This document shows, piece after piece, positions 8,551-61,445 of a stretch of DNA of 64,000 nucleotides. Numbering within the stretch: position 1 is the stretch's first letter; the number at the start of each line of letters is the position of its first letter. The DNA lies in contig JBIJDH010000005.1 of assembly GCA_044344255.1 (NCBI GenBank), positions 128,001 through 192,000 of the forward strand. The letters are read 5' to 3'. The DNA comes from Myxococcota bacterium (GTDB lineage Bacteria > Myxococcota_A > UBA796 > UBA2385). Under the pieces are notes generated by a model. That model was not told the origin of the DNA. It saw nothing but the letters and a program-made list of their open reading frames with translations, and did no database searches. A program made the position numbers and the translations under genes.

Positions 8551-8598
8551 CTGGGCCCTGGCGTGAGAGAGAAGATCGGAGCGATGGGCATCGCCGAG

Positions 8599-8615
8599 TT
8601 GGCACGGTGGTTGCT
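8599..8615 (+). promoter_or_regulatory. Sigma54 (-24/-12) promoter
   Basis: TTGGCACGGTGGTTGCT matches the consensus YTGGCACGRNNNTTGCW exactly; lies about 45 nt upstream of GGAG-RBS/ATG 8660. Confidence 0.8.
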
Positions 8616-8659
8616 CTCGTCTTGGCTTCGCCTCGTTCATCCCTCGCATCGGAGAAATA

Positions 8660-9403: not shown

Positions 9404-9567
9404 GCGCGCGCGCCGCCTCCGCCGTCGACGCCACGGGCATGGACGCGCCCTCTGTCTTCGACCTGGTCTGAGCTGCGCGCCGAGTGCCTCGTCGCGGCGC
9501 CGACGGCGGAGTACCTGTCGAGGGTCGGCGCCTGCCCGACCCCACCGACCGCTCGGAGCCCCGCCCC

Positions 9568-10221: not shown

Positions 10222-10233
10222 TCGGCGGCGGAA

Positions 10234-10409
10234 CGATGGCCCCGAAGGGCGGTGCGATGGCCCCGAAGGGCAGTGCGATGGCCCCGAAGGGCAGTGCGAT
10301 GGCCCCGAAGGGCAGTGCGATGGCCCCGAAGGGCAGTGCGATGGCCCCGAAGGGCGATGCGATGGCCCCGAAGGGCGATGCGATGGCCCCGAAGGGCGAT
10401 GCGATGGCC
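10234..10409. repeat. 21-bp tandem repeat, 8 copies plus a partial copy (CGATGGCCCCGAAGGGCRRTG)
   Basis: Directly visible between two convergent genes; no unique spacers. Confidence 0.95.
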
Positions 10410-10456
10410 TTCGTTCAGCCGAGCCACCGCGACCGGGCGGAGCGCCGACGTCGGGG

Positions 10457-11380
10457 TCAAGGCCCGATCGGCAGCAGGGACTGGAGCAGCGGCAACAGGA
10501 GCGCGGCGTCGGCGCGGATGTTGTCGGCCTGTCGGCGGAGCGTCTCGGCGGTCTGTCGGGCGGCGTCTGCCTGGTCGGCGGGGGAGAGGGCGATGAGGTC
10601 GCAGCGGGGCTGGACCTCTCCCCAGAACTGCCCATAGGCGCAGCGGCGGATGTGCCCCTGGGCGAGCTCGGACTGGACGGCCCGGTCGAGGGCGCCGAGG
10701 CGGGCGGCGGCGAAGGACTGGAGGCCCTGCGGGCTCGCGAGGGCGCGGCGGAGCTCCTCCCGGCCGCTGGGGGCGCCGGGCGCGGGGCCGAGCTCGACCT
10801 CGGAGGCGGCGATGGGCCAGCGGCTGCGGCGGCTGAGCGTGACGCGGTCGGTGATGCCCGCCGACGAGAGGCGCAGCAGCACGAGGTCGTAGTCGTCCTC
10901 GGCGGGGTCCTGTGCGAGGTCGAGCCGCAGGCGGACCGCCCAGTCACCCTCTTCGGGAAAGAGGCCGGCCTCGTAGGAGAGGGCGATCACCGGCCCGTCG
11001 TCGCCCTCGTCGGCGCCCCCGTGGAGGGACCCCTGCTCGACGGCGAGGCTGCGCCAGCCCACGCCGCGTCGCTCCTCTTGGCCCCAGCAGCCCGCCGCGG
11101 CGGAGAGGCCGAGGCACCAGGACTCGCGGGGCCCGCTGCCGGAGGTGGAGGGCCCCTCGTGCGCCCAGCCGACGCTGTTCGTGACGGCGGCCCCATGGAG
11201 GCGGTGCGCGAGGGCGTCGAGCTCGGCGCTGGCGAAGGGGAGGCCGGCGTTGGGGTCAGGGCCCGCGGCCCGGCGCGGGCAGGCCAGGAGGCCGAGCAGC
11301 AGCAGGCCGCCGAGGGGGGCGACCGTGGAGCGCGGCGCTCGCGGCGGCCTGGGGCTTGGAGGTGGAGGTGGACGGTGCAC
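10457..11380 (-). CDS. Hypothetical lipoprotein
   Basis: LLLLGLLAC lipobox-like segment; start codon uncertain. Confidence 0.55.
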   Translation of the reverse strand: MHRPPPPPSPRPPRAPRSTVAPLGGLLLLGLLACPRRAAGPDPNAGLPFASAELDALAHRLHGAAVTNSVGWAHEGPSTSGSGPRESWCLGLSAAAGCWGQEERRGVGWRSLAVEQGSLHGGADEGDDGPVIALSYEAGLFPEEGDWAVRLRLDLAQDPAEDDYDLVLLRLSSAGITDRVTLSRRSRWPIAASEVELGPAPGAPSGREELRRALASPQGLQSFAAARLGALDRAVQSELAQGHIRRCAYGQFWGEVQPRCDLIALSPADQADAARQTAETLRRQADNIRADAALLLPLLQSLLPIGP

Positions 11381-11415
11381 GGTTGGCCTGTGCTACGGTT
11401 CGGGCGGAGGTGGTC

Positions 11416-13401
11416 TTGGGCGTGAGAGCGGGCGTCGTCAACGATGGGTCGGGGCCCGAGGTCCCCGATCAGCTCGACATGATGCCCGAGGTGCGGCGCT
11501 TCGCCCACCTCGTCCTCGACCGGGAGCTGCGCCCGCCCATCGCGATCGGCCTGCTCGGCGAGTGGGGCTCGGGGCGGAGCTTCTTCCTCGAGCGACTCCG
11601 ACAGGAGGTGCGCCGGGTGGCGGCGCGGGAGGGGTCGGCCGAGCGGCACGTGCGAAACGTCTGTGACGTCTCCTTCAACGCCTGGCACTTCGTCGACACC
11701 AACCTCTGGGCCAGCCTCGCCGCGGAGATCTTCACGGGCCTCGACGTCTGGGTGCGCCGCTCGCACACGCTGCCGCTGCACCTCCGCCGCGAGCGGGCGG
11801 GAGAGGCGCTGATCGAGGCCAAGACCGCCGAGGAGGCGGCCGAGGAGGCCCTCCGGCTGGCGCGGCGCCGAGAGGAGGAGGTCCGCGCCGACGCGGTCGC
11901 CGCCCGTCGGCGCGAGGAGCAGCGCCTGCGCGAGGTGGGCTCCCTGTTTGATCCCGACGTGGCGCGGGCGGTGCTCGACACCGAGAGCGGTCGACAGACC
12001 CGCGATCGACTGAACAAGGCCCTCTCCGACATCGGGCTGGCCGAGATCCCCGACGAGCTGCTCGGACAGGTTGCTTTCGGCGAGGACATCCGGGTGCGCG
12101 CCCGCAGCGGAGCGGTGCTGCTCTCGGCGATGGGGCGGAGCCTCTTCGCCTGGGATCCGCTCAAGTGGGCGATGATCTGCATCCTCTTTGCGTTGTCTGT
12201 CGTCCCCGAGCACCCCTGGTTCAAGGGCTTCGATGCCCACGTCCCGCAGGTCTTTGTCGGAGTGGGGGCGATCCTCCGTCAGGTGCAGAGCGCCTTCTCG
12301 CGGGTGCGCACCGTGGTGGAGCAGGGCTTCTCCCTAGAGCGACAGGCCGTGGCGGCGCGGGACGGGGTGCTGCTCCGCCGAATGGAGGCCCGCGAGGTGG
12401 AGGCGGCCGCCGAGACGGCGCGCCTGCGGGCCGCCGAGGAGGCCCTCCAGGCGGCGCGGGCTCGTTCAAAGCAGGCGGAGGACACGCTCAGCGACCTCCA
12501 GCCCCGCCAGCTCCTCGCCACGCTGAGCGCCGCCGCCGCCGCGGAGGGGGGGAGATACCGACAGGAGGAGGGCATCATCGCGGCCATTCGGCGTGACCTG
12601 TCGAGCCTCGAGCAGATCTTACGAGAGGACCCTGAGAACCTCGACCGCGTCGTGCTCTACATCGATGATCTCGACCGCTGCCCGCCCGACAAGATCGTCG
12701 AGGTGCTCCAAGCGGTGCACCTCCTGCTCGCCTTCGAGCTCTTCGTGGTGGTGGTCGCGGCCGATCCGGCCACCCTCGAGCGGGCCCTCGTCCAGCACCA
12801 TCAGGGCGGCGGCGGCCTCGACGGTCGCACGGAGGCCATTCACTGGCTGGAGAAGGTCTTTCAGATCCCCTATCGGGTGGGGCGCCTCTCCCGGCGCGGC
12901 TTCGAGAACATCGTGGACTCCCTCAGCGCGCCGACGGTCCAGGCGGTCGAGGAGGCCAACACCATCGAGCTGCCCCCGCTCGATCCCGCCCTCCGCTTCA
13001 CCCTCTCGCCGGCGGAGCTCTCCTTCATCCGCGGCCTTCACGGCTTCGTGCGCACTCCTCGCTGCGCGCGGCGCCTGTTCAATACGTACTACCTGTTGCG
13101 GGCCGGGGTCCCCGAGGCCGAGCTCCCGGCCTTCGTGGCGGAGGAGCACCGAGTCACCTTGACCCTCCTCGCGCTCGCCGTGTCCTGGTCGACGGGCGGC
13201 GCCCGCCTCCTCCGGGCGGTGGCGGCGGGGCAGGAGCCCCTCGAGGTCCTGCGTGCCCCCGAGGCGCTGGCGGAGCCGGGCGGCGCCGAGCTGGCGGCCG
13301 TCTTCACGGCGCTGCGACCCGCCCTCTCACCCCCGGGGCCGGTGTGGCCCCGGATGGCGGAGCGGGTGGCCCGCTTCACCTTCTGGGGCCTCGAGGGCTG
13401 A
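11416..13401 (+). CDS. KAP-family P-loop NTPase with coiled coils and TM segment
   Basis: IAIGLLGEWGSGRS (Walker A), FNAWHF, VVLYIDDLDRC (Walker B), WLEKVFQIPY, TPR..RRL.N. GGAGG RBS precedes TTG 11416. Confidence 0.85.
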   Translation: MGVRAGVVNDGSGPEVPDQLDMMPEVRRFAHLVLDRELRPPIAIGLLGEWGSGRSFFLERLRQEVRRVAAREGSAERHVRNVCDVSFNAWHFVDTNLWASLAAEIFTGLDVWVRRSHTLPLHLRRERAGEALIEAKTAEEAAEEALRLARRREEEVRADAVAARRREEQRLREVGSLFDPDVARAVLDTESGRQTRDRLNKALSDIGLAEIPDELLGQVAFGEDIRVRARSGAVLLSAMGRSLFAWDPLKWAMICILFALSVVPEHPWFKGFDAHVPQVFVGVGAILRQVQSAFSRVRTVVEQGFSLERQAVAARDGVLLRRMEAREVEAAAETARLRAAEEALQAARARSKQAEDTLSDLQPRQLLATLSAAAAAEGGRYRQEEGIIAAIRRDLSSLEQILREDPENLDRVVLYIDDLDRCPPDKIVEVLQAVHLLLAFELFVVVVAADPATLERALVQHHQGGGGLDGRTEAIHWLEKVFQIPYRVGRLSRRGFENIVDSLSAPTVQAVEEANTIELPPLDPALRFTLSPAELSFIRGLHGFVRTPRCARRLFNTYYLLRAGVPEAELPAFVAEEHRVTLTLLALAVSWSTGGARLLRAVAAGQEPLEVLRAPEALAEPGGAELAAVFTALRPALSPPGPVWPRMAERVARFTFWGLEG

Positions 13402-13417: not shown

Positions 13418-14011
13418 CTAAGACGCCGCGCCGTCGGCGTACGGAGGCGCTGGGTCGTATTGGATATATCGCTGAACCTCGCGGGCGAAGGGGGCGCCGT
13501 GGAGCTGGCCCACCAGCCACAGCGCCATGTCGATGCCGGCCGAGACCCCGGCCGCCGTGACGACGTTGCCGTCCACCACGTAGCGGGCGTCGGTGCGCAC
13601 GGTGACGGGGTGCTGCCGCAGCTCCTCCACACAGGACCAGTGGGTGGTGACCGCGCGACCCGTGGCCAGCCCGGCCGCCACGAGCACGAAAGCGCCAGTG
13701 CAGACGCTCGTGATCCAGGTGCAGCCCGGGGCCTGGGCGCGCAGGAGGTCGAGCATCGCGGGGTTGTGCATCTGACGGCGCCGCCCGTCGCCGCCGGGCA
13801 CGAGCAGCACGTCGAGGGCCGGCGCGTCGGCCCAGGCCATGGCGGGTACCACGACCATCCCCTTCGCGCAGCGCAGGGGGGCGGTGCCCTCGCCGAGGAT
13901 CAGCACGCGGTCTGTGCCGTTCATCTCGGCGGCGGCGGCGAAGACCTCATAGGGCCCGACGAAGTCGAGCTCCTCTGCGTCGGGGAAGACCAGCACACCA
14001 ATTGTGGCCAT
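13418..14011 (-). CDS. DJ-1/PfpI family protein
   Basis: EELDFVGPYEV, LLVPGG, SVCTGA, TAAGVSAGIDMAL. Confidence 0.92.
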   Translation of the reverse strand: MATIGVLVFPDAEELDFVGPYEVFAAAAEMNGTDRVLILGEGTAPLRCAKGMVVVPAMAWADAPALDVLLVPGGDGRRRQMHNPAMLDLLRAQAPGCTWITSVCTGAFVLVAAGLATGRAVTTHWSCVEELRQHPVTVRTDARYVVDGNVVTAAGVSAGIDMALWLVGQLHGAPFAREVQRYIQYDPAPPYADGAAS

Positions 14012-14151
14012 GAGGAGCGCTCCGGCGGGGGCGGGCCTGTCTATCCCGGCGCCTCGGCCCCGTCGTTGTTCCGGGGGTCTCGCCGCCTGGACCTCGCCGC
14101 CTGGACCGCCCCCCCGGAGGTCGATAGCGAGTCGGCCCCATCGGAGCCCCC

Positions 14152-14544
14152 ATGAAGCCGCGCCTGTCCGTCCTCCTGCCCCTCTCGCTCATCGCCCTCG
14201 CGGCGCTCGCCTGTGGAGGTGCCGAAGAAGCGGAGCCCCGCGCGGAGCAGGCCCCGGCCGCTGCCCAGGACGAGGGCGCGCTCCGCAGCGTCCTCGGCAG
14301 CACCGAGGGCACCTACGGCTGGGAGACCCAGGGCGGCACGCTCAGCTACGACTTCTTCGCCGACGGCCGCGTGCACATGCAGGGCCCGGACGGTGAGGCC
14401 ACCATGTGGACCGGCCAGTGGGCCCTCGCCGGTGACCAGCTCACCGTCACCGAGCCCAGCCACCCCACCGAGACCTTCTCCGTCGCCCGCGACGGCGACC
14501 GCCTCCTCCTCAACGGCACCCCCTGGACCCGCTACAAGCCCTGA
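14152..14544 (+). CDS. Small lipoprotein, hypothetical
   Basis: GGAG RBS; LAALAC lipobox; beta-rich body. Confidence 0.7.
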   Translation: MKPRLSVLLPLSLIALAALACGGAEEAEPRAEQAPAAAQDEGALRSVLGSTEGTYGWETQGGTLSYDFFADGRVHMQGPDGEATMWTGQWALAGDQLTVTEPSHPTETFSVARDGDRLLLNGTPWTRYKP

Positions 14545-14607
14545 GCGGCCCGACCCGGAGCGCGATCCGCGATAGACCGAGCTTCCACCCGCAGCCCAGG
14601 ACGCGCC

Positions 14608-17022
14608 ATGATTCGCCCTCGCCCGCCCTGGCGCCGTGTCCTCCTCCTGTCGGGTGCCCTGCTCTCGCCGCGCGTCGCCTGGGCGTTGAGCTGCGACGAG
14701 ATCCTGAACATGGTGATGGTCAACGTCCCCACGAACATCGTGGCGATGACGATCAAGGACAGCGGAGAGGACTTTTCGTCAGAGGTGCTGTCCTGCCTCG
14801 AACGGCAGGGCGCCCCCGCCGAGGTGCAGGCCGCGTGGCGCGCCCTCCGCCGGCCCACCTCGGACTCGAAGGCGAACGTGGCGCCGCCCGCTCCGGTCTC
14901 CCCGTCGGCCGCGCCAGCCCGGCCCTCCGCCGAAGGGAAGGTCCCGCCGGAGGTGCAGGCGGCGGTGGAGCTCGCGCGGGCGGGGAAGCACGATCGCGCC
15001 GCCCCCGCGCTCTTCGCGCTTGTCCAGTCGGGCCGCTTCCTCGAGCAGGAGCCGAGGCTCCTCTACCTCCTCGCCAGCAGCCTGGAGGCGCTCAATCTGG
15101 ACCACAGCGCTCAGATCCAGTTTATCGAGGTGGTCAAGAAGGGCACGGCCGGGGCGTACTTCTCTCCTGCGCTCGAGCATTTGGTGCACCTCGCCGAGCG
15201 GACGGGCGATTGGACGGACATTGATCGGATCTTCCCCAAGGTGCCACCCGAGGCCGTCCCGAGGTCCATTCGCGCGACCTATCACTATCGAATGGGTCGG
15301 CGCTCGCTGCGCGACGGTGACCTCACCGAAGCAAAGAAATTCCTCGACCAGGTGCCCGAGGGCTCCCTCACCTCGCTGCGGGCCCGCTTCCTCAGCGGGT
15401 CGATCTACGGCCGGCAGGCGAAGCTCAAGAGCGCGATGCGCATGTTCCTGGAGGTCGCTCGAGAGGCGAGCCGGGTGGACGCGACCGCAGGGGCCCAGCA
15501 GCGGGAGGTGGACCTCCTCGTAGACCTCTCCCTGCTCAACACCGCGCGGCTCTACTATTCGATTGAGCGGTACGCGAACGCGCTCGAGTATTACGCTCTG
15601 GTCTCGTCGCGAGGCCCCACCTATTCGACGGCGGCCTTCGAGGCGGCTTGGGCCGCCTTCATGATGGACGACCGGGCGGGGGCCCGAAGCCACCTCGGGC
15701 GGATCAATGGAAATGCCACGGCACCGAAGAAGCGCCAGACGCTGATCGACAAGGGGAGGTCCGACGAGGTGATCTGGCCTCTCTCCTATCCCGAGTCGGA
15801 CGTCCTCGCCGCGCTCATCGAGATCGAGGACTGCCGAGCGGACGCAGCCAGGGCGCGCCTCGACGCGGCGGACGCGCTGCGCCTGCCCCTGGCGAGTGAG
15901 CTCAGCTCCTTCGTGAAGGCATATGCCACGGAGGATGGAAAAAAACGGGCAGAGAACGCCTTCGATTCGTTCTTCCGTTCGGAGTCTGGCGACCTCGGCC
16001 ACAGCCGGGCGCTGCGACCCACTCTCCTCCAGGATCGAGAGCTGGCCGGGCTAGTCGATCACATCAGCCGGATGAACGTGGAGCGAGCCCGAATCCAGGC
16101 GCAGGGACAGGACTGGGGCGGCAGCGGCCTGACCGCGGCGCTGGTCGCCGGTGTCGCCGAAGACCAGACGCGGCTCCGTCGCAGGGCGGGCCTGGTGCTC
16201 CTGGGGGAGCTCGCGACGGAGGCCAACCGGCTGCAGGACATCTCTACGCAGGTGAGCCAGATACGATCGGAGCTGGCCTCAACCAGCGCGAGCGCCCGGG
16301 CGAGGTGCTCAGCCGGGGCGCCTGCCTCGGCGACCGCCGTTTCAGCCGCCGTGTCACTCCCTGTCCGACCCGCTCAGCCCCAAGCCGTCGCGACCCCCGT
16401 GACCGCGGATCGCGCTCGGGAGCGCGGCGGGCGCCGTGGGGCGGCCGAGGAGCCCGACGACGGCCTCCCCATCGCGGTGCGCGCCGCGCTGGAGCGCGCC
16501 GGTTGGACCCCGACGTTCAATCACTCGGCCACCTTCACCGCGGGGGACATCCTCCGGAGCGGCAGCAGCACGCCGGTGGTCTTCGGCAAGGAGTGTTTTA
16601 TCGCGGAGCCGCGGGAGGGGGGCTACAGCAGCCTCGACGTCATCCAGGCCTTGCAGGCCGGAGGCCGCCTCCCCCTGTTGGGAAGCACGGAGCTCCGCGC
16701 GGACGGCATGCAGTACAAGCAGGTGCGCTTCGCCGATCCCTTCGTCTCTGAGCTCTCGGAGATGACCATGACCCCGACGGAGCCCTGCCTGAGCTTCCTG
16801 CGGGCACAGCGGGTGAAAGGCGAGGACCTCTCGCAGTGGGTGGTGATTCAGGCGGTGATGAAGGCGGAGATCAAGGAGCAGGTCTGTCGGGAGCTCGAGG
16901 CGGCGGTTGGCCTCGGGGCGGTGGGGGTGTCTGCCGGGATGAGCAGCCAGTGTCTCCAGGGATCGAACGGGCAGGTGGCGGTCGCCTTCAAGCTGCGTCC
17001 GGTCCTCGACCTCATCCGTTGA
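14608..17022 (+). CDS. Secreted TPR protein resembling myxobacterial GltC-type gliding proteins, fused to an extra C-terminal domain
   Basis: Signal peptide (AWA|LSC); several TPR-like helical repeats; Pro/Ala linkers; distinct Cys-containing C-terminal domain. The GltC similarity is from recall only. Confidence 0.55.
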   Translation: MIRPRPPWRRVLLLSGALLSPRVAWALSCDEILNMVMVNVPTNIVAMTIKDSGEDFSSEVLSCLERQGAPAEVQAAWRALRRPTSDSKANVAPPAPVSPSAAPARPSAEGKVPPEVQAAVELARAGKHDRAAPALFALVQSGRFLEQEPRLLYLLASSLEALNLDHSAQIQFIEVVKKGTAGAYFSPALEHLVHLAERTGDWTDIDRIFPKVPPEAVPRSIRATYHYRMGRRSLRDGDLTEAKKFLDQVPEGSLTSLRARFLSGSIYGRQAKLKSAMRMFLEVAREASRVDATAGAQQREVDLLVDLSLLNTARLYYSIERYANALEYYALVSSRGPTYSTAAFEAAWAAFMMDDRAGARSHLGRINGNATAPKKRQTLIDKGRSDEVIWPLSYPESDVLAALIEIEDCRADAARARLDAADALRLPLASELSSFVKAYATEDGKKRAENAFDSFFRSESGDLGHSRALRPTLLQDRELAGLVDHISRMNVERARIQAQGQDWGGSGLTAALVAGVAEDQTRLRRRAGLVLLGELATEANRLQDISTQVSQIRSELASTSASARARCSAGAPASATAVSAAVSLPVRPAQPQAVATPVTADRARERGGRRGAAEEPDDGLPIAVRAALERAGWTPTFNHSATFTAGDILRSGSSTPVVFGKECFIAEPREGGYSSLDVIQALQAGGRLPLLGSTELRADGMQYKQVRFADPFVSELSEMTMTPTEPCLSFLRAQRVKGEDLSQWVVIQAVMKAEIKEQVCRELEAAVGLGAVGVSAGMSSQCLQGSNGQVAVAFKLRPVLDLIR

Positions 17023-36641: not shown

Positions 36642-36700
36642 TGGGTGGGTCTCAGGCGAGCGGGTAGACGACTGGCTACCCTCTCTCCGTGAGCCCGCCG

Positions 36701-37597
36701 ATGCGCGACACCCTTGCCCTGTCTGTCCTCCTCACCCTCGCCGCCCCGCTCGCTTGCTCCGGCGACAAGGCAGACACGGGCTCCTCGGGCGGTCACCACG
36801 ATGGCGGATCAGACAGCGGGGGCGCGGAGGGGGTCGCCACCACCATTCAGTTCAGCGCGGGTGCGGGGGACACCCCCTTCTCCTGCACGACCCCGCTCAC
36901 CGGGCTCGGCCTCACGGCGACCACGTGGACGCCCTCCGATCTTCGGCTCTACCTCCATGGCTTCTCGCTGATCGACGCCGCCGGGGAGGCGACGCCCCTG
37001 ATCCTCGAACAGGATGGCCTCTGGCAGGTCGAAGACGTCGTGCTGCTCGACTTCGAAGACAAGACCGGGACCTGCTCCAACGGCACCACCGACCGGAATG
37101 ACCGGGTGGTGGGCACCGCCCCCGCGGGCGAGTGGACGGGCCTCCGCTTCTCGGTCGGTGTGCCCTTTGCGCTCAACCACGGCGACGCCGCCACCGCCCC
37201 TTCGCCCCTCAACCTGAGCTCGATGTTCTGGGGCTGGGAGGGCGGCTACAAGTTTGTGCGCATCGACGGCAGCAGCACGGGGCAGCCCGCGGTGCTCACC
37301 CACATCGGCTCGACGGGCTGCGTGGCGGGGGACGACGGCGAGATCACCGACTGCGCCCAGGAGAACGTCTCGACCCTGACGATCGAGGGCTTCGACCCTG
37401 CCGTGAACACCCTGCGGCTCGATCTGGCCGGCCTCTTCGCGGGCACTGACCTCGACGCCAACGCCGACGGCACCATGGGCATCTGCATGTCCGAGCCCTC
37501 CGATCCCGACTGCGGGCCGATCTTCGCGGCGCTCGGCATCGGCTTCGGCGGCGCGGCGGCAGACCCCACCGCGCAGACCACCTTCGTGGTGGAGTGA
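36701..37597 (+). CDS. mbnP: MbnP-family copper-binding lipoprotein (MXAN_0976/AZL_007920 type)
   Basis: LAC lipobox; DLRLYL, LLDFED..G.C, GVPFALNH, MFWGWEGGYKF (WxW), HIGSTGC, CMS....DC. Confidence 0.9.
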   Translation: MRDTLALSVLLTLAAPLACSGDKADTGSSGGHHDGGSDSGGAEGVATTIQFSAGAGDTPFSCTTPLTGLGLTATTWTPSDLRLYLHGFSLIDAAGEATPLILEQDGLWQVEDVVLLDFEDKTGTCSNGTTDRNDRVVGTAPAGEWTGLRFSVGVPFALNHGDAATAPSPLNLSSMFWGWEGGYKFVRIDGSSTGQPAVLTHIGSTGCVAGDDGEITDCAQENVSTLTIEGFDPAVNTLRLDLAGLFAGTDLDANADGTMGICMSEPSDPDCGPIFAALGIGFGGAAADPTAQTTFVVE

Positions 37598-38751
37598 GCG
37601 TGCGGGCCGCCGCGCTCGGGCTCCTGCTGCTCGCCTGCGCCGACAAGGGGGCCCGGAGCGGTGACTCGGACGCCGCCGACGGTTGGGACTGGGGCCTCCC
37701 CGAGGGCTTCCCCGAGCCGAACGTGCCCGTGGACAACCCCATGAGCGCCGCCAAGGTGGAGCTCGGCCGGTACCTCTTCTACGACGTGCGCCTCTCCTAC
37801 AACGAGACCCAGTCCTGCGGCACCTGCCACGAGCAGGACAAGGCCTTCACCGACGGGCGCGCCCAGGCCGAGGGCTCTACCGGCGAGGCGCACCGCCGCG
37901 GCTCGATGGCCCTCGGCAACGTCGCCTGGGCCTCGGGCCTCACCTGGGCCAGCGTCTCCGTGCGCACCCTCGAGGACCAGGCGCTGCTGCCGCTCTTCGG
38001 CGAGCACCCGGTCGAGCTCGGCATGGCGGGGCACGAGGATGAGCTCCTGCGGCGCTTCGCGGAGGACGCCGGTTACCGCGCGCTCTTCGGTGAGGTGTGG
38101 CCGGAGGACGCCGCGCCGGTCACCCTCGCCCACCTCGCCCAGGCCATCGCCGCCTTCGAGCGCTCGCTCGTCACCGCCGGCTCCCCCTACGACCGCTTCC
38201 GCTACGCCGATGACCCGGGCGCGATGTCGGCCTCGGCCCGTCAGGGGATGGGGCTCTTCTTCAGCGAAGAGCTGGAGTGCTTCCACTGCCACGGAGACCC
38301 GCTCTTCACGGACTCCACGGAGACGGCGACCTCCACCTTCGAGGAGCTCTTCTTCCACAACACCGGGCTCTACAACGTGGACGGGGCCGGCGCCTATCCA
38401 GAGCGGGATCAGGGCATCTTCGAGCAGACCGGCCTCGCGCTCGACATGGGGCGCTTCCGGGCGCCGCCGCTGCGCAACGTGGCGCTCACCGCGCCCTACA
38501 TGCACGACGGATCGATCCCGACGCTCGAGCTGGTGCTCGACCACTACGCGGCCGGCGGGCGGACCGTCTCGTCGGGGGAGGACGCGGGTGTGGGGAGCGA
38601 GAGCCCGGTGAAGAGCGAGCTCATCCAGGGCTTTGACCTCGATGAGGCGGACCGACAGCGCGTGATCGACTTCCTCCACGCGCTGACCGACGAGGGCTTC
38701 CTCACCGACGCGCGCTTCGGGCCGCCCGACTCCGCCTCTCCCCCGCTGTGA
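37594..38751 (+). CDS. mbnH: MbnH-family di-heme enzyme (bCcP/MauG superfamily, MXAN_0977 type)
   Basis: CGTCH and CFHCH heme motifs; LGRYLFYD, F.APPLRNVALTAPYMHDGS; GTGA overlap with mbnP. Confidence 0.92.
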   Translation: MSVRAAALGLLLLACADKGARSGDSDAADGWDWGLPEGFPEPNVPVDNPMSAAKVELGRYLFYDVRLSYNETQSCGTCHEQDKAFTDGRAQAEGSTGEAHRRGSMALGNVAWASGLTWASVSVRTLEDQALLPLFGEHPVELGMAGHEDELLRRFAEDAGYRALFGEVWPEDAAPVTLAHLAQAIAAFERSLVTAGSPYDRFRYADDPGAMSASARQGMGLFFSEELECFHCHGDPLFTDSTETATSTFEELFFHNTGLYNVDGAGAYPERDQGIFEQTGLALDMGRFRAPPLRNVALTAPYMHDGSIPTLELVLDHYAAGGRTVSSGEDAGVGSESPVKSELIQGFDLDEADRQRVIDFLHALTDEGFLTDARFGPPDSASPPL

Positions 38752-38791: not shown

Positions 38792-38896
38792 GAGCGCGGA
38801 CCCGGCCCGATGCGCGGCGCGGTGCGCGCTCATCGCCGGCGGCGCGAAGAGCTGGACATAGCGGAGGTTGAACCGTTCGGCGGGGGTGCGGGGCGC

Positions 38897-38913
38897 CTGG
38901 CACGGCGCGTGCG
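38897..38913 (+). promoter_or_regulatory. Probable sigma54 promoter
   Basis: CTGGCACGGCGCGTGCG has GG-N10-GC spacing and two mismatches to the consensus; lies about 50 nt upstream of ATG 38964. Confidence 0.6.
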
Positions 38914-38963
38914 AAAGGGTCCTGCACGCCAACCCGGCGCCCACCAACCCCTGGAGCCCCCCC

Positions 38964-39080
38964 ATGAACGCCCCCGTCAAGCCCGTCTTCGCCGCCTCCG
39001 CTCGCTCCACCCTCTCCGTCACCGTCAAGACCGGCATCCGCGCTGGCCGGGCCGCCGAGGAGGAGCAGAAGCGCGGCTGA
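38964..39080 (+). CDS. Putative RiPP (graspetide) precursor peptide, 38 aa: MNAPVKPVFAASARSTLSVTVKTGIRAGRAAEEEQKRG
   Basis: GGAG RBS 7 nt before ATG; high-GC3 codons; followed by a hairpin, an oxygenase and an ATP-grasp gene. Confidence 0.75.
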   Translation: MNAPVKPVFAASARSTLSVTVKTGIRAGRAAEEEQKRG

Positions 39081-39090
39081 GGGACAGAGA

Positions 39091-39117
39091 CGGAGCGGGT
39101 CGATTCGGCCCGCTCCG
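39091..39117 (+). terminator. Stem-loop after the precursor gene (attenuator or mRNA stabiliser)
   Basis: CGGAGCGGGTCG-ATT-CGGCCCGCTCCG: 12-bp stem with one G:U pair, followed by gtcctttggctt. Confidence 0.65.
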
Positions 39118-39203
39118 GTCCTTTGGCTTCACTCGATCTCCCTCTCCCGCTCCCGCTCCCTCTCCCGCTCCCTCTCCCCGCGCTGCCGCTGCCGGAGCCC
39201 CTC

Positions 39204-39827
39204 GTGAGCCGCCCCTCTCCCCTTGGTCACTCCCCGATCCGGCTCTCCCAGCGCCCCGAGGTCTGGATGGTGGATGGGTTCATCGACCCCGGCACCGCCG
39301 CCGCCCTCTCCGCCCTGGGGAGGGACACCGAGCGTGCGCGGCTCGCGGAGAGTGAGCCCACGATCAACGAGACGGGCTTCTGCCTCGAGGTGCCGATCGA
39401 GGGGGCGCCCCTCCTCGAGACGCTCCGGGAGCGGATCGAGGGCCTCTTCGAGGTGCAGAGCGACGTCTACGACTGTATTCGGTATCGAAATTATCGACCG
39501 GGTGAGGGGCACCCCGCCCACCTCGACTGCTACGAGATCGAGGGGCGGGAGCTGATCGCCACGGCCCTCCTGTCCCTGCGGGACACGCCGGCCGGGGGAG
39601 AGACGGAGTTCACCGAGGTGGGCCTCGCTGTCCCTCCTCGCCTCGGTCGCCTGCTCTGCTGGTACAATCACAGCCCGGACGGCGCGCGGGACCCTCTCTC
39701 TCGCCACGGCGGCCTGCCGGTCATCGAGGGAGAGAAGGAGGTGCTCCTGTACTTCATCTACAAGCAGAAGGAGTACGCCGCCCACCGTCCCTTCGCTGCG
39801 GGCGAGACCGAGGTGGCGGGTGGATGA
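39204..39827 (+). CDS. 2OG-Fe(II) oxygenase, prolyl-4-hydroxylase-like
   Basis: Y.PGE..PAHLD (HxD), ATALLSL, GGETEF, RHGGLPVIEGEK (distal His and 2OG-binding Lys). GGAG precedes GTG 39204; alternative start TTG 39123. Confidence 0.85.
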   Translation: MSRPSPLGHSPIRLSQRPEVWMVDGFIDPGTAAALSALGRDTERARLAESEPTINETGFCLEVPIEGAPLLETLRERIEGLFEVQSDVYDCIRYRNYRPGEGHPAHLDCYEIEGRELIATALLSLRDTPAGGETEFTEVGLAVPPRLGRLLCWYNHSPDGARDPLSRHGGLPVIEGEKEVLLYFIYKQKEYAAHRPFAAGETEVAGG

Positions 39828-40803
39828 GACGATCCTCGTCCTCACGGCCTCGACCCTGGCCGACGCCGGGGTCGAGCGGGTCTGTGAGGCCCTGCGCTCC
39901 ACCGGGCGCCGCGTCATCGAGGTCGACTCCGCGCGCTTCCCGCTCGACACCCAGCTCTCTGTCGACCTCGATCGCGCCACCCTCCACGACGGTGAGACCG
40001 TGGAGCTCGACCACGTGAGCGCGGTCTGGCACCGGCACACCGACGTCGCGGGCGCCCTCGGGGACGCCCTTGACCCCACCTGGCGCGACGCCGTCGTCCG
40101 GCAGTCCGAGCTCGCCCTCGCCGTGCTGGCGGCCGACCTCCCTTGCCTGCACGTCGATCACCCCGACCGCACCGAGGCCGTGCCCGGCTCACCGGGCATC
40201 CTCCGCCTCGGCCGCGCGGCTGGCCTCGATGTGCCTCGCACGTTGGTCTCGAACCACCCGGGTCGGGTCCGGGACTTCGTGCGCGGCTGCGAAGGCGGCG
40301 CGGTGCGGAAGCTCCTGCACAGCTCCTCGGTCATCATCCACACCGAGGCGGGCGACGTCCGGGGCAGCACCGAGGCGGTCTCCCCCGACGATCTGGTCGA
40401 TGACAGATCCATCGCCGCCTGCCCGATGGTGTGGCAGGAGCGGGTCCCGAAGCTGCGCGAGCTGCGGGTGACCGCGGTGGGGCGCCGCCTCTTCGTCGCC
40501 TCGATCGACCCCCGCGCCTCGGTCCAGGGCGCGGTGGACTGGCGCCAGGACCCTGCGCTCGTGCGGGCCTTCGAGGTCGACACGCTCCCCCCAGCGGTGG
40601 AGGCCGCCGTCCACCGGCTGCTCGACCGCCTCCGCCTGAACTTCGCCACCCTCGACATCATCCGCACGCCCGAGGGGCGCCATGTGCTGCTGGAGGTGAA
40701 CACGCTCTCCTTCTTCGCCTTCGTCGAGGACGCGACCGGCCTGCCCATCTCCGCCGAGCTGGCGCGCCTGCTGGCCGGAGAGGTGCCCTCGCGGGCGCCC
40801 TGA
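39820..40803 (+). CDS. MvdC/MvdD-like ATP-grasp peptide ligase (graspetide synthetase family), divergent
   Basis: ILVLT, D.ARFP, VSAVW.R, GL.VP.TLVSN.P, CPM.WQE.VPK..ELRVT.VG, VDWR, LEVN, GLPIS; overlaps the oxygenase stop. Confidence 0.85.
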   Translation: MDETILVLTASTLADAGVERVCEALRSTGRRVIEVDSARFPLDTQLSVDLDRATLHDGETVELDHVSAVWHRHTDVAGALGDALDPTWRDAVVRQSELALAVLAADLPCLHVDHPDRTEAVPGSPGILRLGRAAGLDVPRTLVSNHPGRVRDFVRGCEGGAVRKLLHSSSVIIHTEAGDVRGSTEAVSPDDLVDDRSIAACPMVWQERVPKLRELRVTAVGRRLFVASIDPRASVQGAVDWRQDPALVRAFEVDTLPPAVEAAVHRLLDRLRLNFATLDIIRTPEGRHVLLEVNTLSFFAFVEDATGLPISAELARLLAGEVPSRAP

Positions 40804-40861: not shown

Positions 40862-41278
40862 ATGACCCGATTGCGGCAGCCTGCCCCCGACTTCGCCTCC
40901 GCAGCGCTTCGGCACCTTCGTGACGCCGATGTCCTGGTGACGACCTCGCCGGTTCAAAGCCTACACCTCGCGGGGTTCGGCCCGGAGTGCGCTCGAAAGG
41001 CGGCTCTGACGAGGGGTTGGGCGACTCGGGCGCTCGGTCACGACGCGGCCCAACCCGAGCTTGTCGCCTGGGCGCTCGATCTGGACGGGGTCGCCGCTCG
41101 AACTGTGGGCACCCCTGCACCCGACCTCGGCTGGCGGCCGGACTGCCGCTATTGGGCCTCCGGCGCTCGAACCGGCGCCGAGGCGCGTGCGATGGTGGAC
41201 CGGTGCGCCGCGGACGCTATGCCCATCCTCGTCCGCCTCTGGGCCCAAGGGCGGTGGGCGGGAGATAACGAGTCATGA
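40862..41278 (+). CDS. Small HEPN-like protein
   Basis: A..RHL.DA..L, HLAGFGPECARKA (compare HEPN YLAGYAVECALKA), GHD, W....RY. Confidence 0.6.
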   Translation: MTRLRQPAPDFASAALRHLRDADVLVTTSPVQSLHLAGFGPECARKAALTRGWATRALGHDAAQPELVAWALDLDGVAARTVGTPAPDLGWRPDCRYWASGARTGAEARAMVDRCAADAMPILVRLWAQGRWAGDNES

Positions 41279-42591
41279 CGCTTGATTATCAAGATGTCGT
41301 GCCGGAGGTGCTGCGCGTCTTCGTGGAAAGTCGGGCCTGGGGGGCGGGGGTTCGAGCCCTCATCGTGCGCACCCTGCACGGAGCGGTCCGGCTTGTGCTT
41401 GACGCTGACCATACACAGCCCGAGCACATCAGCGAGCTTGAACAGTCCCTGGTGACAGCGCTCGGACCGTGGTTTCGGGGCCCCGTGATCGCGCCGAACA
41501 TCGTCCCGGAGGGCCTGCGACGGATCGCTCGCGAGCTTTGGAGAGGAGCCGAGGAAACCGCTCGACAAAAGCCGGATTGGGCGGATCGCTGGCCGACCGG
41601 CTGGCCTGCGGAGGTCCCTGGCGCCCTCCCTGGTTCGCCGGCCATCGCGCTGGGCGGGCGAGTGGAGGCCCGTCAGGAGGCCCTGGGCAAGGAGCCCTGG
41701 GTGGCCCCGGAGCTCGGGCATGCGCCCTGGCCGATGGCGCCCCGGACCCCGCGCATCACGGCCTTTCACGGGTTCAAGGGTGGTGCAGGCCGCACCACCG
41801 CCCTGGGGATGCTGGCGTGGCTTGTGGCCGCGCGACGCGAGCGGGTTGTGTGTGTCGATCTCGACCTGGAGGCACCGGGGCTGTCCTATTTTCTCCCGGG
41901 AGATCAGCCGGTCCAGCGGGGCGTTATTGACTTTCTGCTCTCCCACGCGGCAACTGGGCAGGGGGGGGCACTTCCTGTGCAGGCGGTGCAGATTCTTGGT
42001 CAAGAGCTCCACGTCGTGGCGGCTGGAGTGGTAGACGACCTGTATGTAGAGAAGCTCAGTCGCCTGGATACGCTCCACGGCGACACCAGCCGGAGTCCTG
42101 TCCATCTCGCCCTGAATGAGCTCTTGGAGCGCATCAAAAGGGACATCAAGCCGCAGCACATCTTCCTCGATTGCCGAGCCGGTTTGCATGACTTGGCCGG
42201 CCTCGCGCTGAACGATCTGGCTCACGTCAACGTGTTTGTGGGTCGTGGTGGGGTTCAGGAGATGGGCGGCCTCTACGCCTTGTTGCGTCGACATACGAGT
42301 CGCAGGGCGTCGGACGATCAGCTCCTCTTATTCCTGCGTACCTTTCATCCGCTTCCAATCGAGCCGGACCGCCTCGACCGGCAGCGGCAGGCGCTCTTTG
42401 AGCTTTGCACAGAAGTGATCAAGCCCTATCTCCCGCAATATTCGGACCAGGGAGCGGCGCACGATCCTGCTCCCCTGGGCTACCACGACGAGGTCACTCG
42501 AGCGGACCACTTGGGGAAGATCCCGATGCTGGCCATTCAGCACCCTCTCGTGGTAGAGGCCCTGGCCCGGCTGGAGGCGCTTTGGACATGA
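41275..42591 (+). CDS. ParA/MinD-like ATPase with variant KGGxGR Walker A and an N-terminal extension
   Basis: AFHGFKGGAGRTT, VDLDLEAPGL, IFLDCRAGL; ATGA overlap. Confidence 0.85.
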   Translation: MTLDYQDVVPEVLRVFVESRAWGAGVRALIVRTLHGAVRLVLDADHTQPEHISELEQSLVTALGPWFRGPVIAPNIVPEGLRRIARELWRGAEETARQKPDWADRWPTGWPAEVPGALPGSPAIALGGRVEARQEALGKEPWVAPELGHAPWPMAPRTPRITAFHGFKGGAGRTTALGMLAWLVAARRERVVCVDLDLEAPGLSYFLPGDQPVQRGVIDFLLSHAATGQGGALPVQAVQILGQELHVVAAGVVDDLYVEKLSRLDTLHGDTSRSPVHLALNELLERIKRDIKPQHIFLDCRAGLHDLAGLALNDLAHVNVFVGRGGVQEMGGLYALLRRHTSRRASDDQLLLFLRTFHPLPIEPDRLDRQRQALFELCTEVIKPYLPQYSDQGAAHDPAPLGYHDEVTRADHLGKIPMLAIQHPLVVEALARLEALWT

Positions 42592-44195
42592 ACACGGACC
42601 TGAGTTCGGTCGAGCGACGGAGACTCCAGGGCCTGTTGGTGGATGCGCTCGCGCCAGAACATCCACAGGTCCCGGATTCGAGCATTATCGCGTCTTTCCT
42701 CCCCCTCCGTGTACACGAGACTATGTTGAATGGGCGGCGCTTCCTTGTGGAGGGTGAGCGGGGTGCTGGTAAGACGGCGCTCTTTCGCTTCATGCGAGCC
42801 TTGACACCGACCGTGTTGCCGATTGTCTTCCCGCAGGCGCCGCCGGGGCTCCGCTGGGTGACCGGCTTCGAAGACTCCAGGGCCTTTCCCAACCCGCAGG
42901 CGCTCTACGATTGGGCTGAGCGCGCTTCACCGCAGGTGATGGAGCGCGCCTGGTTCGCGCTCTTGGTGGAGACGCTGGCTCGGCACCTGCCCGACACGCC
43001 GCTCCCACCGTCAGTCGCCGACGCGCTGCGGCCGTTGAAGGAAAATCCCTCCGACGTGGCGAGGTGGGTGCTCTCGTTCGAGCCGGTGGCCGGCCTATCG
43101 ATGGCGTGGATGGACACCCTCGAGGTTTACCTCGGAGCGAGCAGCTCGACGATCATCATCGCGTATGATGATCTTGACATGATCTCGCGGGCCGCGGACC
43201 TTCGCACCGCGGGTCGGCTGTGTGGAGCGCTCACCGGGACCTGGATCACGCTGTCTCGGCGGCTCCAACGGGTACAGGCCCGGATCTTCATTCGGCCCGA
43301 TCTGGCCGATCTCACCCGCTCTGCCGCGACAGACGCGAGCAAGTTGCGGGACAGCTCAGTCACCCTCCGTTGGTCAGGGGAAGACGTGTTCCGTGCCCTG
43401 CTCCGGCGGGTGGGGAGCCAGAAGGCCCTGCGGGACTGGCTCCGAAAGGCCCCCGCGGCGGTGGATTTCAGCCGTCGCCCGACGCTGGGATGGATGCCCC
43501 CGAGCGTCCTCCCATCGGTACCCACACAGCTTTCCCTCGGTTTTGCAGCGTCGCCGGAGGGCTTGTCCGAGAGCAGCCAGCGGGCTTTTGCCGAGCGCCT
43601 CCTTGGCGCCACCATGGGGAGCGGCTCCAATAAGGGCTACACCCACACCTGGATCCTGAATCACTCCGCCGATGCGCGGGGCACCGCGCTTCCGCGCGTC
43701 ACCTTCAACCTGATTCGAAAGGCGGCTGAGCTTGCGATGGTCAGGGGTGAGGGGATCCACGGCCTTCACTTGATCGGTACCGCGCAGCTGGAGGGGGCGC
43801 AAGCGGAGGCGGGGAGACAGCGCCTTGATGAGCTGAAGGAGTTCCACCCGGTCGTTCGGCGGCTCGAAGCCCTTCGGGGCGAGTCGCTCCCGAAGCCGTT
43901 TGGAGAGGCGGCCGCTCTCCTCGGCCGTCATCCTGTGGAGGAGGATGCGCTCGGTACGGACGGGGAGGCCGTGATCCGGGCCCTGATGGGGATCGGTGTC
44001 CTGGTACGTCGGCCACCGTCCCGGCGCCGCCCCGGCTCCGTGCCGTCGAGTGACCCCGCCTCGGAGGAACAGCGGATCGATCTCCCCGACCTCTTTCGGA
44101 AGGCCCTCGACTGTGGGCGGAAGGGCGGGCCCTTGCAGCTCTCTCGACCGGAGTCGACGCACGGGGGGCGCGACCGAGGGCCCGGCGCCGGATAA
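42588..44195 (+). CDS. P-loop ATPase (Sll1717-like / STAND-like)
   Basis: LVEGERGAGKT, IIIAYDDLD, IFIRPDL, LRWS.EDVFRALLRR, D.....PR; ATGA overlap. Confidence 0.8.
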   Translation: MNTDLSSVERRRLQGLLVDALAPEHPQVPDSSIIASFLPLRVHETMLNGRRFLVEGERGAGKTALFRFMRALTPTVLPIVFPQAPPGLRWVTGFEDSRAFPNPQALYDWAERASPQVMERAWFALLVETLARHLPDTPLPPSVADALRPLKENPSDVARWVLSFEPVAGLSMAWMDTLEVYLGASSSTIIIAYDDLDMISRAADLRTAGRLCGALTGTWITLSRRLQRVQARIFIRPDLADLTRSAATDASKLRDSSVTLRWSGEDVFRALLRRVGSQKALRDWLRKAPAAVDFSRRPTLGWMPPSVLPSVPTQLSLGFAASPEGLSESSQRAFAERLLGATMGSGSNKGYTHTWILNHSADARGTALPRVTFNLIRKAAELAMVRGEGIHGLHLIGTAQLEGAQAEAGRQRLDELKEFHPVVRRLEALRGESLPKPFGEAAALLGRHPVEEDALGTDGEAVIRALMGIGVLVRRPPSRRRPGSVPSSDPASEEQRIDLPDLFRKALDCGRKGGPLQLSRPESTHGGRDRGPGAG

Positions 44196-59309: not shown

Positions 59310-61445
59310 TCAGACGTCGAGGCCGATCACGGCCCACTCGAGGGTCGGCGGCGCGCGCTTGATGCCCGTCCCCTTGACCCAGACCCGGCCGCCGCTCGGC
59401 AGGCGACGGAGGGGGCTGAGGTCGGTGACCTGCGGGCAGTCGGAGAGGATGAGGGCCCGGAGGCCGCGGAGGGCCGACAAGGGGGTGAGGTCGCGGAGCC
59501 CATGGCAGCCGTGCAGGGCCAGGGCCTGGAGGTTGGGCAGGCGGGAGAGGGGCTCGAGGTCCTTGATCGCGGTGCAGCCGCCGAGGTCGAGCCAGCGCAG
59601 CTCCGAGAGGGAGCCGAGCGGCTCGAGGTGCTCGATGCCCACGCAGCCGCGGGCGTCCATCCACTGCAACTTTCGGTTGAAGGCGAGGGGGGAGAGGTCG
59701 GTGACCCGGACGCAGCCGTGCAGGTCGAGTCGGCTGAGCTGGCGGAGGTGGGAGATCGGACCGAGGTCTACGATCTCCGCACAGTCGGCCAGCGAGAGGG
59801 CGACCTGGTCTTCGAGGGCGGCGAGGGGCCGCAGGTCGCGGGTCCAGGGGGGGACGCGCCCCCGGTCGGTCGCCCAGCGTCGGATGGCCTCGCCGACGAG
59901 GCGATGGGCGGCGGTGCGCATCTTGTCGGGCACGGCGGTGTGATCGCGGATGGCCTGGGCGAGCGGGCCGAGCGCGTCCATGTCGGCGAGGGTCTGGCGG
60001 CGACCGCCGCCGAGGAGCTGCGTGTAGACCTTCTCGGCCTGCGCCGGATCGGCCGCGAGCTGCTCGAAGACCTGTCCGAGCTCGACCGCACCCTCTCGTC
60101 GGCGGGCCCAGCCCTTGAGCGCGGCTACCGACTGGGCGCTCGGGGCCTCGGCCTGGAGCGATCGGGCGATGCTGCCCGCCGCGAGGTGGACCTGCAGCTC
60201 GGCGGAACAAAAGCGGACGGAGCGGTCGGTGGCGTCGAGGAAGGGGGCGCGCTCCAGCACCAGCTCGACGAAGGTGCTGGCGACGACCTCGCCGGGGTCC
60301 TCCTCGTGGGTGGCACGGGCGGCGGCGCGGGCGAGCTCGGTGACCTCCTCTTGCGGGACACCGCCGTCCCCCTGGCCAGAGCGCGCCGCGAGGTCGCCGA
60401 AGAAGCGCCGCCGGGCCTCTCCGCCGAGGCCGGAGGCGTCGCCGAGGAGCCCGATGGTGACGTCGCGGAGCTGATCGAGCAGCCCGGGGAGGCTGTTGGA
60501 GAGCCCTCCCGGACCCTCCCGCGCGAGGGCGAGCAGGGGGAGCCAGCAAGGCAGGCGGCTCCCGAGCCTGCGGGAGGCGACCTCGAGCTCCGCGGCCAGC
60601 GCTCGGCCCTCCGCCGCCTCGGCCTCCGGGGTGAGGTGGCGGAGGGAGGTCCAGCGCTCCGACCAGGCGCGGACCTGGTGGGCGTCGAAGGGGTGGATGT
60701 GCCAGGCGGGCACCTCCACCTCGGCCGAGGCCGACACGGTGGCCAAGGACGGCGGCAGGTCTTCGTCGGGGGAGACCTCCTCCCGGAGCGGCAGGGCGCC
60801 GTAGCGGGCGGCGTCGGCGGTGATGAGCCAGGTGCAGGAGGGGAAGCGCCACATCCCGTCGAGGATCGCGTCGCGGAGGGCCTCGCGGGCGCCACGGTCC
60901 TCGACCTCGTCGTAGCCGTCGAGCACGAAGAGCACCTGCCCGCGGTCGAGGAGGGCCAGCAGCACGCTGTCGAGGCCGGGGTACCACCAGGGGCGCCCTT
61001 GCTGGAGGGAGAGCAGCGCCTCGACGGTGCGCCCCATTCGTTGCACGGCGAGGCGCCGCAGCGGGAACCAGAGCGGCACCATCCGGCCGAGGCGGTCGAT
61101 CACCGGGTTGTGCGTGGGGTCGGTCAGGGCGTGGATGAGCTCGGCGGCCAGGGTGGAGCGACCGCCCCCGCGCGGGGAGAGGAGCACGATCCTGCGGTGC
61201 AGGTCGAAGAGATCGAAGAGGTCGACCGTGGCCGAGGCCTTGCCTGCGACGGCCGGCGAGGGCCCGAGGCGGGGCGGGATGTAGAGCTCGCTCAGCGGTA
61301 CGAGCCCTCCGCTGCCACCGCGCGGAGCGGGGACAGGCAGCGAGGCGTGCGCCTGCCGGTGCCAGGCCAGGTAGCGGATGAGCGAGCCGTGATCCCAGGG
61401 GTTGAGGAAGGCCCCGGGGTCGGGCGTGGAGCTGGAGCGGTTCAT
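59310..61445 (-). CDS. NACHT-like NTPase with C-terminal leucine-rich repeats
   Basis: L.ELYIPPRL, IVLLSPRGGGRST, VLFVLDGYDEV; about six LRRs of the form L..L.L.GC..I.DL.PL. Confidence 0.8.
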   Translation of the reverse strand: MNRSSSTPDPGAFLNPWDHGSLIRYLAWHRQAHASLPVPAPRGGSGGLVPLSELYIPPRLGPSPAVAGKASATVDLFDLFDLHRRIVLLSPRGGGRSTLAAELIHALTDPTHNPVIDRLGRMVPLWFPLRRLAVQRMGRTVEALLSLQQGRPWWYPGLDSVLLALLDRGQVLFVLDGYDEVEDRGAREALRDAILDGMWRFPSCTWLITADAARYGALPLREEVSPDEDLPPSLATVSASAEVEVPAWHIHPFDAHQVRAWSERWTSLRHLTPEAEAAEGRALAAELEVASRRLGSRLPCWLPLLALAREGPGGLSNSLPGLLDQLRDVTIGLLGDASGLGGEARRRFFGDLAARSGQGDGGVPQEEVTELARAAARATHEEDPGEVVASTFVELVLERAPFLDATDRSVRFCSAELQVHLAAGSIARSLQAEAPSAQSVAALKGWARRREGAVELGQVFEQLAADPAQAEKVYTQLLGGGRRQTLADMDALGPLAQAIRDHTAVPDKMRTAAHRLVGEAIRRWATDRGRVPPWTRDLRPLAALEDQVALSLADCAEIVDLGPISHLRQLSRLDLHGCVRVTDLSPLAFNRKLQWMDARGCVGIEHLEPLGSLSELRWLDLGGCTAIKDLEPLSRLPNLQALALHGCHGLRDLTPLSALRGLRALILSDCPQVTDLSPLRRLPSGGRVWVKGTGIKRAPPTLEWAVIGLDV

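Follow-up and report, generated by a model that had tools for sequence, protein, structure and literature searches.

Two computational catalogues already hold operons of the kind considered here. Li, Burroughs and Aravind (preprint, October 2026) describe a system named HINPO, in which an upstream HEPN protein accompanies a ParA ATPase and a downstream ORC-CDC6/STAND ATPase that is sometimes fused to the ParA protein. That ParA protein carries an N-terminal, inactive Pol-beta nucleotidyltransferase domain, and its group, ConB2, is marked by an arginine in place of the Walker A lysine and by PG after the sensor-1 DxD. PADLOC holds models for a three-gene system, PDC-M28; in the accessible part of Payne et al. 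(bioRxiv 10.1101/2024.01.29.577857), assays are confined to the HEC systems, and the PDCs figure as predictions. We analysed a 64,000-nucleotide stretch of a Myxococcota bacterium genome (contig JBIJDH010000005.1; hereafter the window), which carries a triad of overlapping genes, A, B and C, with the following predicted products:

40862..41278, + strand: gene A, 138 aa, a HEPN protein of the HEPN-T / PF05168 type (class II, partnered by minimal nucleotidyltransferases, MNTs); PDC-M28A; the PA-HEPN1 position of HINPO.
41275..42591, + strand: gene B, 438 aa, a ParA/MinD (SIMIBI) ATPase of the KGGxGR type; PDC-M28B.
41275..41718, + strand: the N-terminal domain of B (about residues 1-148), probably an inactive MNT (Pol-beta) fold.
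42588..44195, + strand: gene C, 535 aa, an ORC-CDC6 / STAND-like P-loop ATPase (Sll1717 family); PDC-M28C.

Judged by sequence, this triad is a HINPO / PDC-M28 operon, a type that two groups before us predicted computationally to act against phage. Genes B and C matched PDC-M28B (E 2e-39) and PDC-M28C (E 2.4e-37); gene A matched PDC-M28A (E 1.4e-6), though only over residues 9-51 (profile positions 3-46 of 138). PDC-M28 was the best and sole PADLOC system for each gene, in the order A, B, C and with similar lengths (138, 438, 480). The order HEPN, N-terminally extended ParA, ORC-CDC6/STAND ATPase is equally that of HINPO: the upstream gene is predicted to encode a HEPN domain, gene B bears both ConB2 marks (KGGAGRT, DLDLEAPG), its N-terminal domain lacks nucleotidyltransferase catalytic motifs, and gene C appears to belong to the ORC-CDC6/STAND clade. 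B-C fusions are common to both, and myxobacteria and filamentous cyanobacteria are among the hosts. We saw no architectural difference from HINPO; our reading of the mechanism differs, in that the HEPN would be the main effector and the N-terminal domain of B likely an MNT-derived antitoxin. The first-pass annotation, made from the sequence alone, had regarded the triad as uncharacterised and not as a named system. It had also listed a match to a described system as something that would tell against it, and PADLOC and HINPO each supply such a match. The terms PDC, PADLOC and MNT (as an abbreviation) never occur in the main text of the HINPO preprint; since PDC-M28 and HINPO are the same, PADLOC output can now be read in its light. 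In our literature search, which reached few subscription papers, HINPO appeared only in that preprint, and we found no paper naming PDC-M28 and no relevant paper on KGGVGR.

We propose that the triad is an abortive anti-phage system in which A is the toxin, the N-terminal domain of B holds it, and B and C form the switch. We rate this reading at even chances, and consider a defence role of some kind quite probable. The first-pass annotation had likewise suggested two ATPases that switch a small HEPN effector, which is plausible. Protein A would be a non-canonical RNA-cutting toxin acting through a predicted alternative site (E42, H60, R96), likely kept inactive through binding by the nucleotidyltransferase-like domain of B. 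The two would derive from a class II HEPN/MNT toxin-antitoxin pair in which the MNT gave up catalysis and came to restrain the toxin by binding. B and C would act together as a single nucleotide-dependent switch, and the ORC-CDC6-like ATPase C would sense the invader, through phage DNA or a phage protein, and so release the HEPN. We favour a toxin-antitoxin type of mechanism because the HEPN is near-obligate, its class is MNT-partnered and the neighbouring domain is MNT-like; B and C are taken to act as a unit because they are fused in some loci. A more specific version is tentative, and clearly less probable than the general one: the MNT, without its AMPylating site, would serve as a docking antitoxin on the Arg-variant ParA, the ORC-CDC6-like sensor would use ATP to strip this antitoxin off the HEPN, turning a class II HEPN/MNT pair into an immune switch, and the HEPN would become the first RX4H-less PF05168 member shown to be an RNase, with E42/H60/R96 as its site.

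The triad is conserved as a unit. A single-sequence locus search with gene B found nothing; an alignment-based search gave 508 confirmed GTDB stretches, and the best 80 of them form our locus set, drawn from myxobacteria, cyanobacteria, Acidobacteriota, Planctomycetota, Chloroflexota, Bacillota and others. A, B and C are separate and in order at 64 of the 80 loci, and B is fused to C at a further 9. Among the 64 three-gene loci, with gene starts picked by script, the gap is exactly -4 at 31 A-B and 36 B-C junctions. Conservation of the triad, which the first-pass annotation had named as a check, is thus borne out by order and coupling across phyla. L049 carries two copies less than 3 kb apart (7566-10885 and 13465-16197), one with three separate genes and one with B fused to C.

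The HEPN gene is close to constant. Of the 76 loci whose upstream sequence is long enough to judge, 74 carry it and two, L068 and L073, do not; C is missing at L070. A second set was built with the KGGVGR model only, ignoring the HEPN: 301 genomes of the phylum yielded 31 places, of which 30, our own locus among them, make up the set. Here 19 of the 30 places have a C-type partner, and the HEPN accompanies 18 of these 19 as against none of the other 11; the one miss has fewer than 400 bases upstream. Where the N-terminal profile of B matches, the HEPN is always there (12/12). The distribution is patchy, with gene A in 2 of 40 relatives and any KGGVGR ATPase in 20 of the 301 genomes.

These counts bear directly on the mechanism put forward in the HINPO preprint by Li, Burroughs and Aravind. 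In their model the ORC-CDC6-like ATPase detects the DNA of an invader and directs multimers of ParA onto it to form a coat; nucleotides are sensed by the inactive nucleotidyltransferase, and the HEPN, a death effector, serves merely as backup. The fusion of B to C at 9 of 80 loci, with A remaining separate, fits this model, as do L068 and L073, where B and C occur without A; the evidence from defence context given below applies to it equally. A backup effector would, however, be expected to be often lost or swapped, yet one HEPN family recurs throughout both sets, and L068 resembles a deletion that also took half of the N-terminal domain. We consider the coating model doubtful, if still of appreciable probability. 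Two Alicyclobacillus species, L068 (7658-7837) and L045 (7307-8185), share the locus; in L068 the HEPN gene and the first half of the N-terminal domain of B are gone, and the ParA core and C are kept.

Our proposal gives the HEPN the leading part, and both fold and family indicate that gene A encodes one, of the PF05168 class. The AlphaFold2 model of A (pLDDT 88.8) was compared with 48,161 chains using VIA, and the six best matches were all HEPN proteins: 1ufb (Z 11.5, rmsd 2.7, 114 aligned), 3o10 (11.4), 2hsb (11.2), 4nqf (9.9), 1wol (9.8) and 8jbc (8.2), values that for a helical bundle are not decisive by themselves. Direct Pfam and NCBIfam scans of the query gave nothing, and a Pfam scan of 37 close homologs only noise; PF05168 emerged with 62 more diverse homologs, 33 of which matched it (best E 1.9e-9, the query itself giving no match), while 3 matched PF18728 weakly. 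These family matches add to the structural Z values and so strengthen the assignment. The first-pass annotation reported HEPN-like motifs in this gene; the HEPN fold is borne out, and a canonical Rx4-6H is absent.

Across the 62 sequences (about 30% identity), E42, C43, K46, R96 and Y97 are invariant, H60 is present in 61 and H18 is near-invariant. As described in the part of PMC3710099 available to us, AF0298-like HEPN-T proteins have an alternative site composed of an acid in helix 2, a histidine inserted between helices 2 and 3, and the motif arginine; AF0298 is 2hsb, the third VIA match of gene A. Because the conserved pattern agrees with this site, E42/H60/R96 is a candidate alternative active site, and RNase activity through it is plausible from conservation and analogy. 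The accessible text of Yao et al. (PMC7641770) describes PF05168 HEPNs as the class II partners of MNTs, with a conserved tyrosine, no RNase motif and no biochemistry. AbiV, a demonstrated anti-phage HEPN rRNase, has 1UFB and 3O10, the top two matches of gene A, among its nearest structures, with the weak PF18728 matches of 3 gene A homologs as a further point in common, and differs in its 91-RNHKSKH-97 motif, its RNA antitoxin and its lack of ATPases (bioRxiv 10.1101/2024.05.05.592566, as far as available).

Gene B carries KGGAGRT at residue 168 and DLDLEAPG at 195, and matched the KGGVGR-variant ATPase model NF047398 at 135.7 bits (cut-off 90). The earlier description of a ParA-type ATPase with GR for GK and a long N-terminal domain (about 150 aa), with no parB nearby, agrees with these matches and with a Pfam scan of 54 window proteins, among which no ParB family member was found. 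Ordinary ParA/MinD positioning or partition, with chance neighbours, is scarcely credible. Weak Pfam matches to ParA/MinD-like families, all below cut-off, are what it has in its favour; the arginine in Walker A, the missing ParB, the patchy distribution and above all the fixed linkage to a HEPN and a second ATPase stand against it, and the conserved linkage already largely refutes it. As a candidate ParABS partition system, for which KGGxGK[ST] and parB were sought, the triad was likewise rejected, its motif being KGGAGRT and no ParB occurring among the scanned proteins.

The antitoxin that we propose would be the N-terminal domain of B. Its AlphaFold2 model (pLDDT 81.8) runs helix, two strands, helix, short strand, helix, and its four top VIA matches were MNTs: 8xeh_E (Z 5.5), 1wot (5.4), 1no5 (5.1) and 5yep_A (5.0), with 85-87 residues aligned and two of the four taken from HEPN-MNT complexes. 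Acyl-CoA ligase and KH-like domains followed at Z 4.7 and lower. In the ESM Atlas, rows 9-10 were NTP_transf_2/Polbeta proteins (TM 0.63/0.57 by target, under our bar). The nucleotidyltransferase motif GS-x8-12-DxD occurs in 1 of 50 such domains, and the family has only one conserved Asp, replaced by Thr in the query; at two conserved N-terminal positions the query differs from its family (D33 to Thr, R135 to Glu), while its ParA core motifs are intact. The domain, going by its model, weakly resembles MNTs and may have an inactive MNT/Pol-beta fold, a weak assignment that agrees at superfamily level with the HINPO preprint. Fused B-C proteins whose N-terminus does not align (L058, L061, L062, L063, L065, L077) are mostly cyanobacterial and retain the upstream HEPN; we take their N-terminal domain to resemble BolA.

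Known HEPN toxin-antitoxin pairs are the nearest relatives outside the two catalogues. With class II HEPN/MNT systems (PF05168/PF01909), as far as the available parts of PMC7641770, PMC2701414 and PMC3710099 describe them, the triad shares a PF05168 HEPN without RX4H, the conserved tyrosine (Y97 in 62/62) and an MNT-like neighbour; here, in contrast, GSx10DxD is missing from the MNT-like domain, which forms part of a ParA fusion and lies 3' of the HEPN, and a third gene is present. Membership in class II was rejected, the motif being found in 1 of 50 domains and the domain not standing alone, and so was class I (type VII), which is defined by RX4HXY, since a His after the invariant Arg occurs in 3 of 62 sequences only. 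The dyad of a HEPN (MAE_18760) with ParA/Soj, presented in the accessible part of Anantharaman et al. 2013 (PMC3710099), likewise places a HEPN beside a ParA/Soj protein proposed as antitoxin; its HEPN is of another family with Rx4-6H, its ATPase occupies the MNT-equivalent position, and it has two genes. It was set aside, as the gene A family has no conserved Rx4-6H and its members match PF05168.

Gene C supplies the putative sensor. It has a Walker A motif, GERGAGKT, at 56 and the sequence IIIAYDDLD ending at 197; G56, G59, G61 and K62 of Walker A and D194 of Walker B are invariant in 70 of 70 sequences, confirming an ATPase with both motifs intact, as first annotated. Its score against NF047389, 74.4 bits, falls narrowly below the cut-off of 75, and the fused homolog L058 exceeds the PF24389 cut-off. 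The first ESM Atlas matches were Sll1717 / PF24389 / nSTAND1 clusters (0.96-0.98), and the atlas also groups gene C with ORC-CDC6-like clusters and with the C-terminal portions of ParA fusions. The sequence pattern suggests a winged helix at the C-terminus. PDB sequence searches with profiles of A, C and the N-terminal domain of B gave nothing significant (best 1wol, E 0.54, and Avs4, E 0.019). Some C proteins have long C-terminal extensions (L011, 9314-11614, with TPR; L022, 1682-4192; P0162), which suggests added sensor domains.

A defence role is indicated by the company that the triad keeps. We scanned up to two genes per side at 71 loci (243 of 246 proteins; L059, a duplicate of L058, was dropped here and is counted among the 80). 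At 4 of the 71 the triad lies inside BREX or Hma:

L076, BREX: PglW, PglX, triad, BrxC, PglZ.
L035, BREX: PglW, triad, PglX.
L016, BREX: triad between PglZ and BrxD, on the opposite strand.
L029, Hma: HmaB, triad, HmaC.

At nine more it stands beside PglX, Hma-like genes, a type I specificity subunit, Septu PtuA, Menshen NsnA, retron XIII or a DpdJ-like helicase. Neighbours scoring at least 200 bits against a PADLOC model number 29 of 243; a control set of 162 genes, 111 taken from 12 arbitrary stretches and 51 from the window, contains 2 (Fisher p 3e-5). This p value overstates the difference, since the controls represent a single phylum and the neighbours at any one locus are interdependent. 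With six generic matches removed, 23 genes at 13 of the 71 loci remain, against 0 of 162 controls. The defence-island association that the first-pass annotation had asked after therefore appears across genomes and not at the window copy, which is flanked by an ATP-grasp peptide maturase and a lipoprotein hydrolase.

These flanks, neither of them a defence gene, would suit a rival reading in which the triad is a mobile stress or addiction toxin-antitoxin module under ATPase control, which gathers in defence loci and does not stop phage. HEPN-T/MNT pairs are described as mobile and given a proposed stress role. The placement of the triad between genes of BREX and Hma at four loci and the enrichment among neighbours argue the other way. 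Two large ATPases also exceed what simple toxin-antitoxin modules contain, and we hold such a module to be unlikely.

Several further points weigh against the abortive-defence proposal, beginning with its toxin. No conserved Rx4-6H exists in the gene A family, where RY followed by H occurs in 3 of 62 sequences; because this canonical RNase motif is missing, an RNase activity of A is something we infer. Class II HEPNs as a whole are described as lacking an RNase motif and as untested (PMC7641770). E42 and K46 (ExxxK) may also be structural, as E67/K70 are dimer contacts in AbiV (bioRxiv 10.1101/2024.05.05.592566). In an alternative reading the HEPN is catalytically inactive and binds RNA or nucleotides in the role of a sensor or adaptor, with the ATPases as effectors. 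The missing Rx4-6H speaks for this, as does the usual lack of catalytic residues in MNT-fused HEPNs (from literature available in part); the invariant E42, K46 and R96 with near-invariant H18 and H60 fit an alternative site, and we regard an inactive HEPN as quite improbable.

The antitoxin half of the same abortive-defence proposal meets objections as well. The MNT matches of the N-terminal domain of B (Z 5.0-5.5) lie below the tool's typical best-hit level. Foldseek placed acyl-CoA ligase C-terminal domains first for it, nothing being significant, and gave no hit at E 0.001 for the model of A or of this domain. In fused cyanobacterial forms the HEPN is kept while the N-terminal domain cannot be aligned with that of the three-gene form (hhalign probability 0.8%), and L073 has the N-terminal domain with no HEPN upstream. 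The HINPO authors, in the part of the preprint available, treat the domain as distinct from MNTs and propose it as a nucleotide sensor, and in MNT-HEPN dyads, as far as the sources available in part describe them, the MNT is almost always 5', the position that the HEPN takes in the triad. As to defence itself, at 58 of the 71 loci the nearest two genes on either side include no specific defence gene, PADLOC and Pfam scans of window proteins found none near the window copy, and we found no experiment on any HINPO / PDC-M28 member in the searched literature.

The window copy is an intact, probably horizontally acquired member of this already named system. Both junctions, A-B and B-C, read ATGA, the two 4-base stop/start overlaps from which coupling had first been read. 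The excess of A/T-ending codons noted at the time is equally clear: G+C at third codon positions (GC3) is 0.759 in A, 0.735 in B and 0.790 in C, against 0.920 +/- 0.034 in the 50 remaining window genes that reach 100 codons (minimum 0.80). The triad falls in the lowest 0.1-1.1% of 5,726 genes genome-wide, a set from a simple caller made for this analysis that may under-call low-GC3 genes. Horizontal acquisition, suggested early on the same grounds, is therefore probable. A and C each occur once in the genome by profile search, and full-length B once. Two lake-water runs that are not flagged as the source gave long contigs spanning most of the triad with 0 differing letters, so its sequence is not an assembly artefact. 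Around the triad we found no flanking repeats that would mark an insertion and no sigma-70-like promoter, with terminators at chance level. No contig joined the flanks as an empty site would, the listed joints having sides of fewer than 30 letters. At the four loci checked in relatives, none of the three genes lies within about 1.5 kb of the ATP-grasp ortholog; the downstream gene was not found there either, so synteny is not established. From one metatranscriptome, a single RNA contig spans 41909-42248 at depth 2.9, which does not suffice to infer expression.

As HINPO / PDC-M28 has been catalogued twice by computation, the discovery value of this copy is modest, and its use is as a test case. 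New here are the class of the HEPN (MNT-partnered PF05168), its conserved candidate site, its near-constant presence and the weak MNT likeness of the ParA N-terminal domain, which together suggest, from sequences and models, a toxin-antitoxin pair rewired under ATPase control. Class II (PF05168) HEPNs are abundant in prokaryotes, and the literature consulted describes them as not yet studied biochemically. With its named residues, the compact, intact three-gene copy offers a test of whether RX4H-less HEPNs are RNases, and of whether ParA-type ATPases with an Arg in Walker A are toxin switches or DNA-coating effectors.

Elsewhere in the window, the region directly upstream of the triad (38886-40803, +) looks like a small cluster for a ribosomally synthesised and post-translationally modified peptide: a short open reading frame ending TVKTGIRAGRAAEEEQKRG, presumably the precursor, is followed by a 2OG-Fe(II) oxygenase and an MvdD-like ATP-grasp maturase. 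Before it, at 36689-38751 (+), MbnP (PF20243) precedes a di-haem cytochrome c peroxidase (PF03150) that we take to be MbnH, an MbnP/MbnH-like pair. A ferritin-like gene at 8660-9403 (+) matches PF00210 in two halves around a single in-frame TAA at codon 116, either a pseudogene or a sequence error. A stand-alone KAP-family P-loop NTPase of 663 aa (11410-13401, +; PF07693, with a partial QatA match) is a possible conflict gene 27 kb from the triad, and a 711-aa protein at 59313-61445 (-) combines NACHT and leucine-rich-repeat matches in a bacterial NLR-like architecture.

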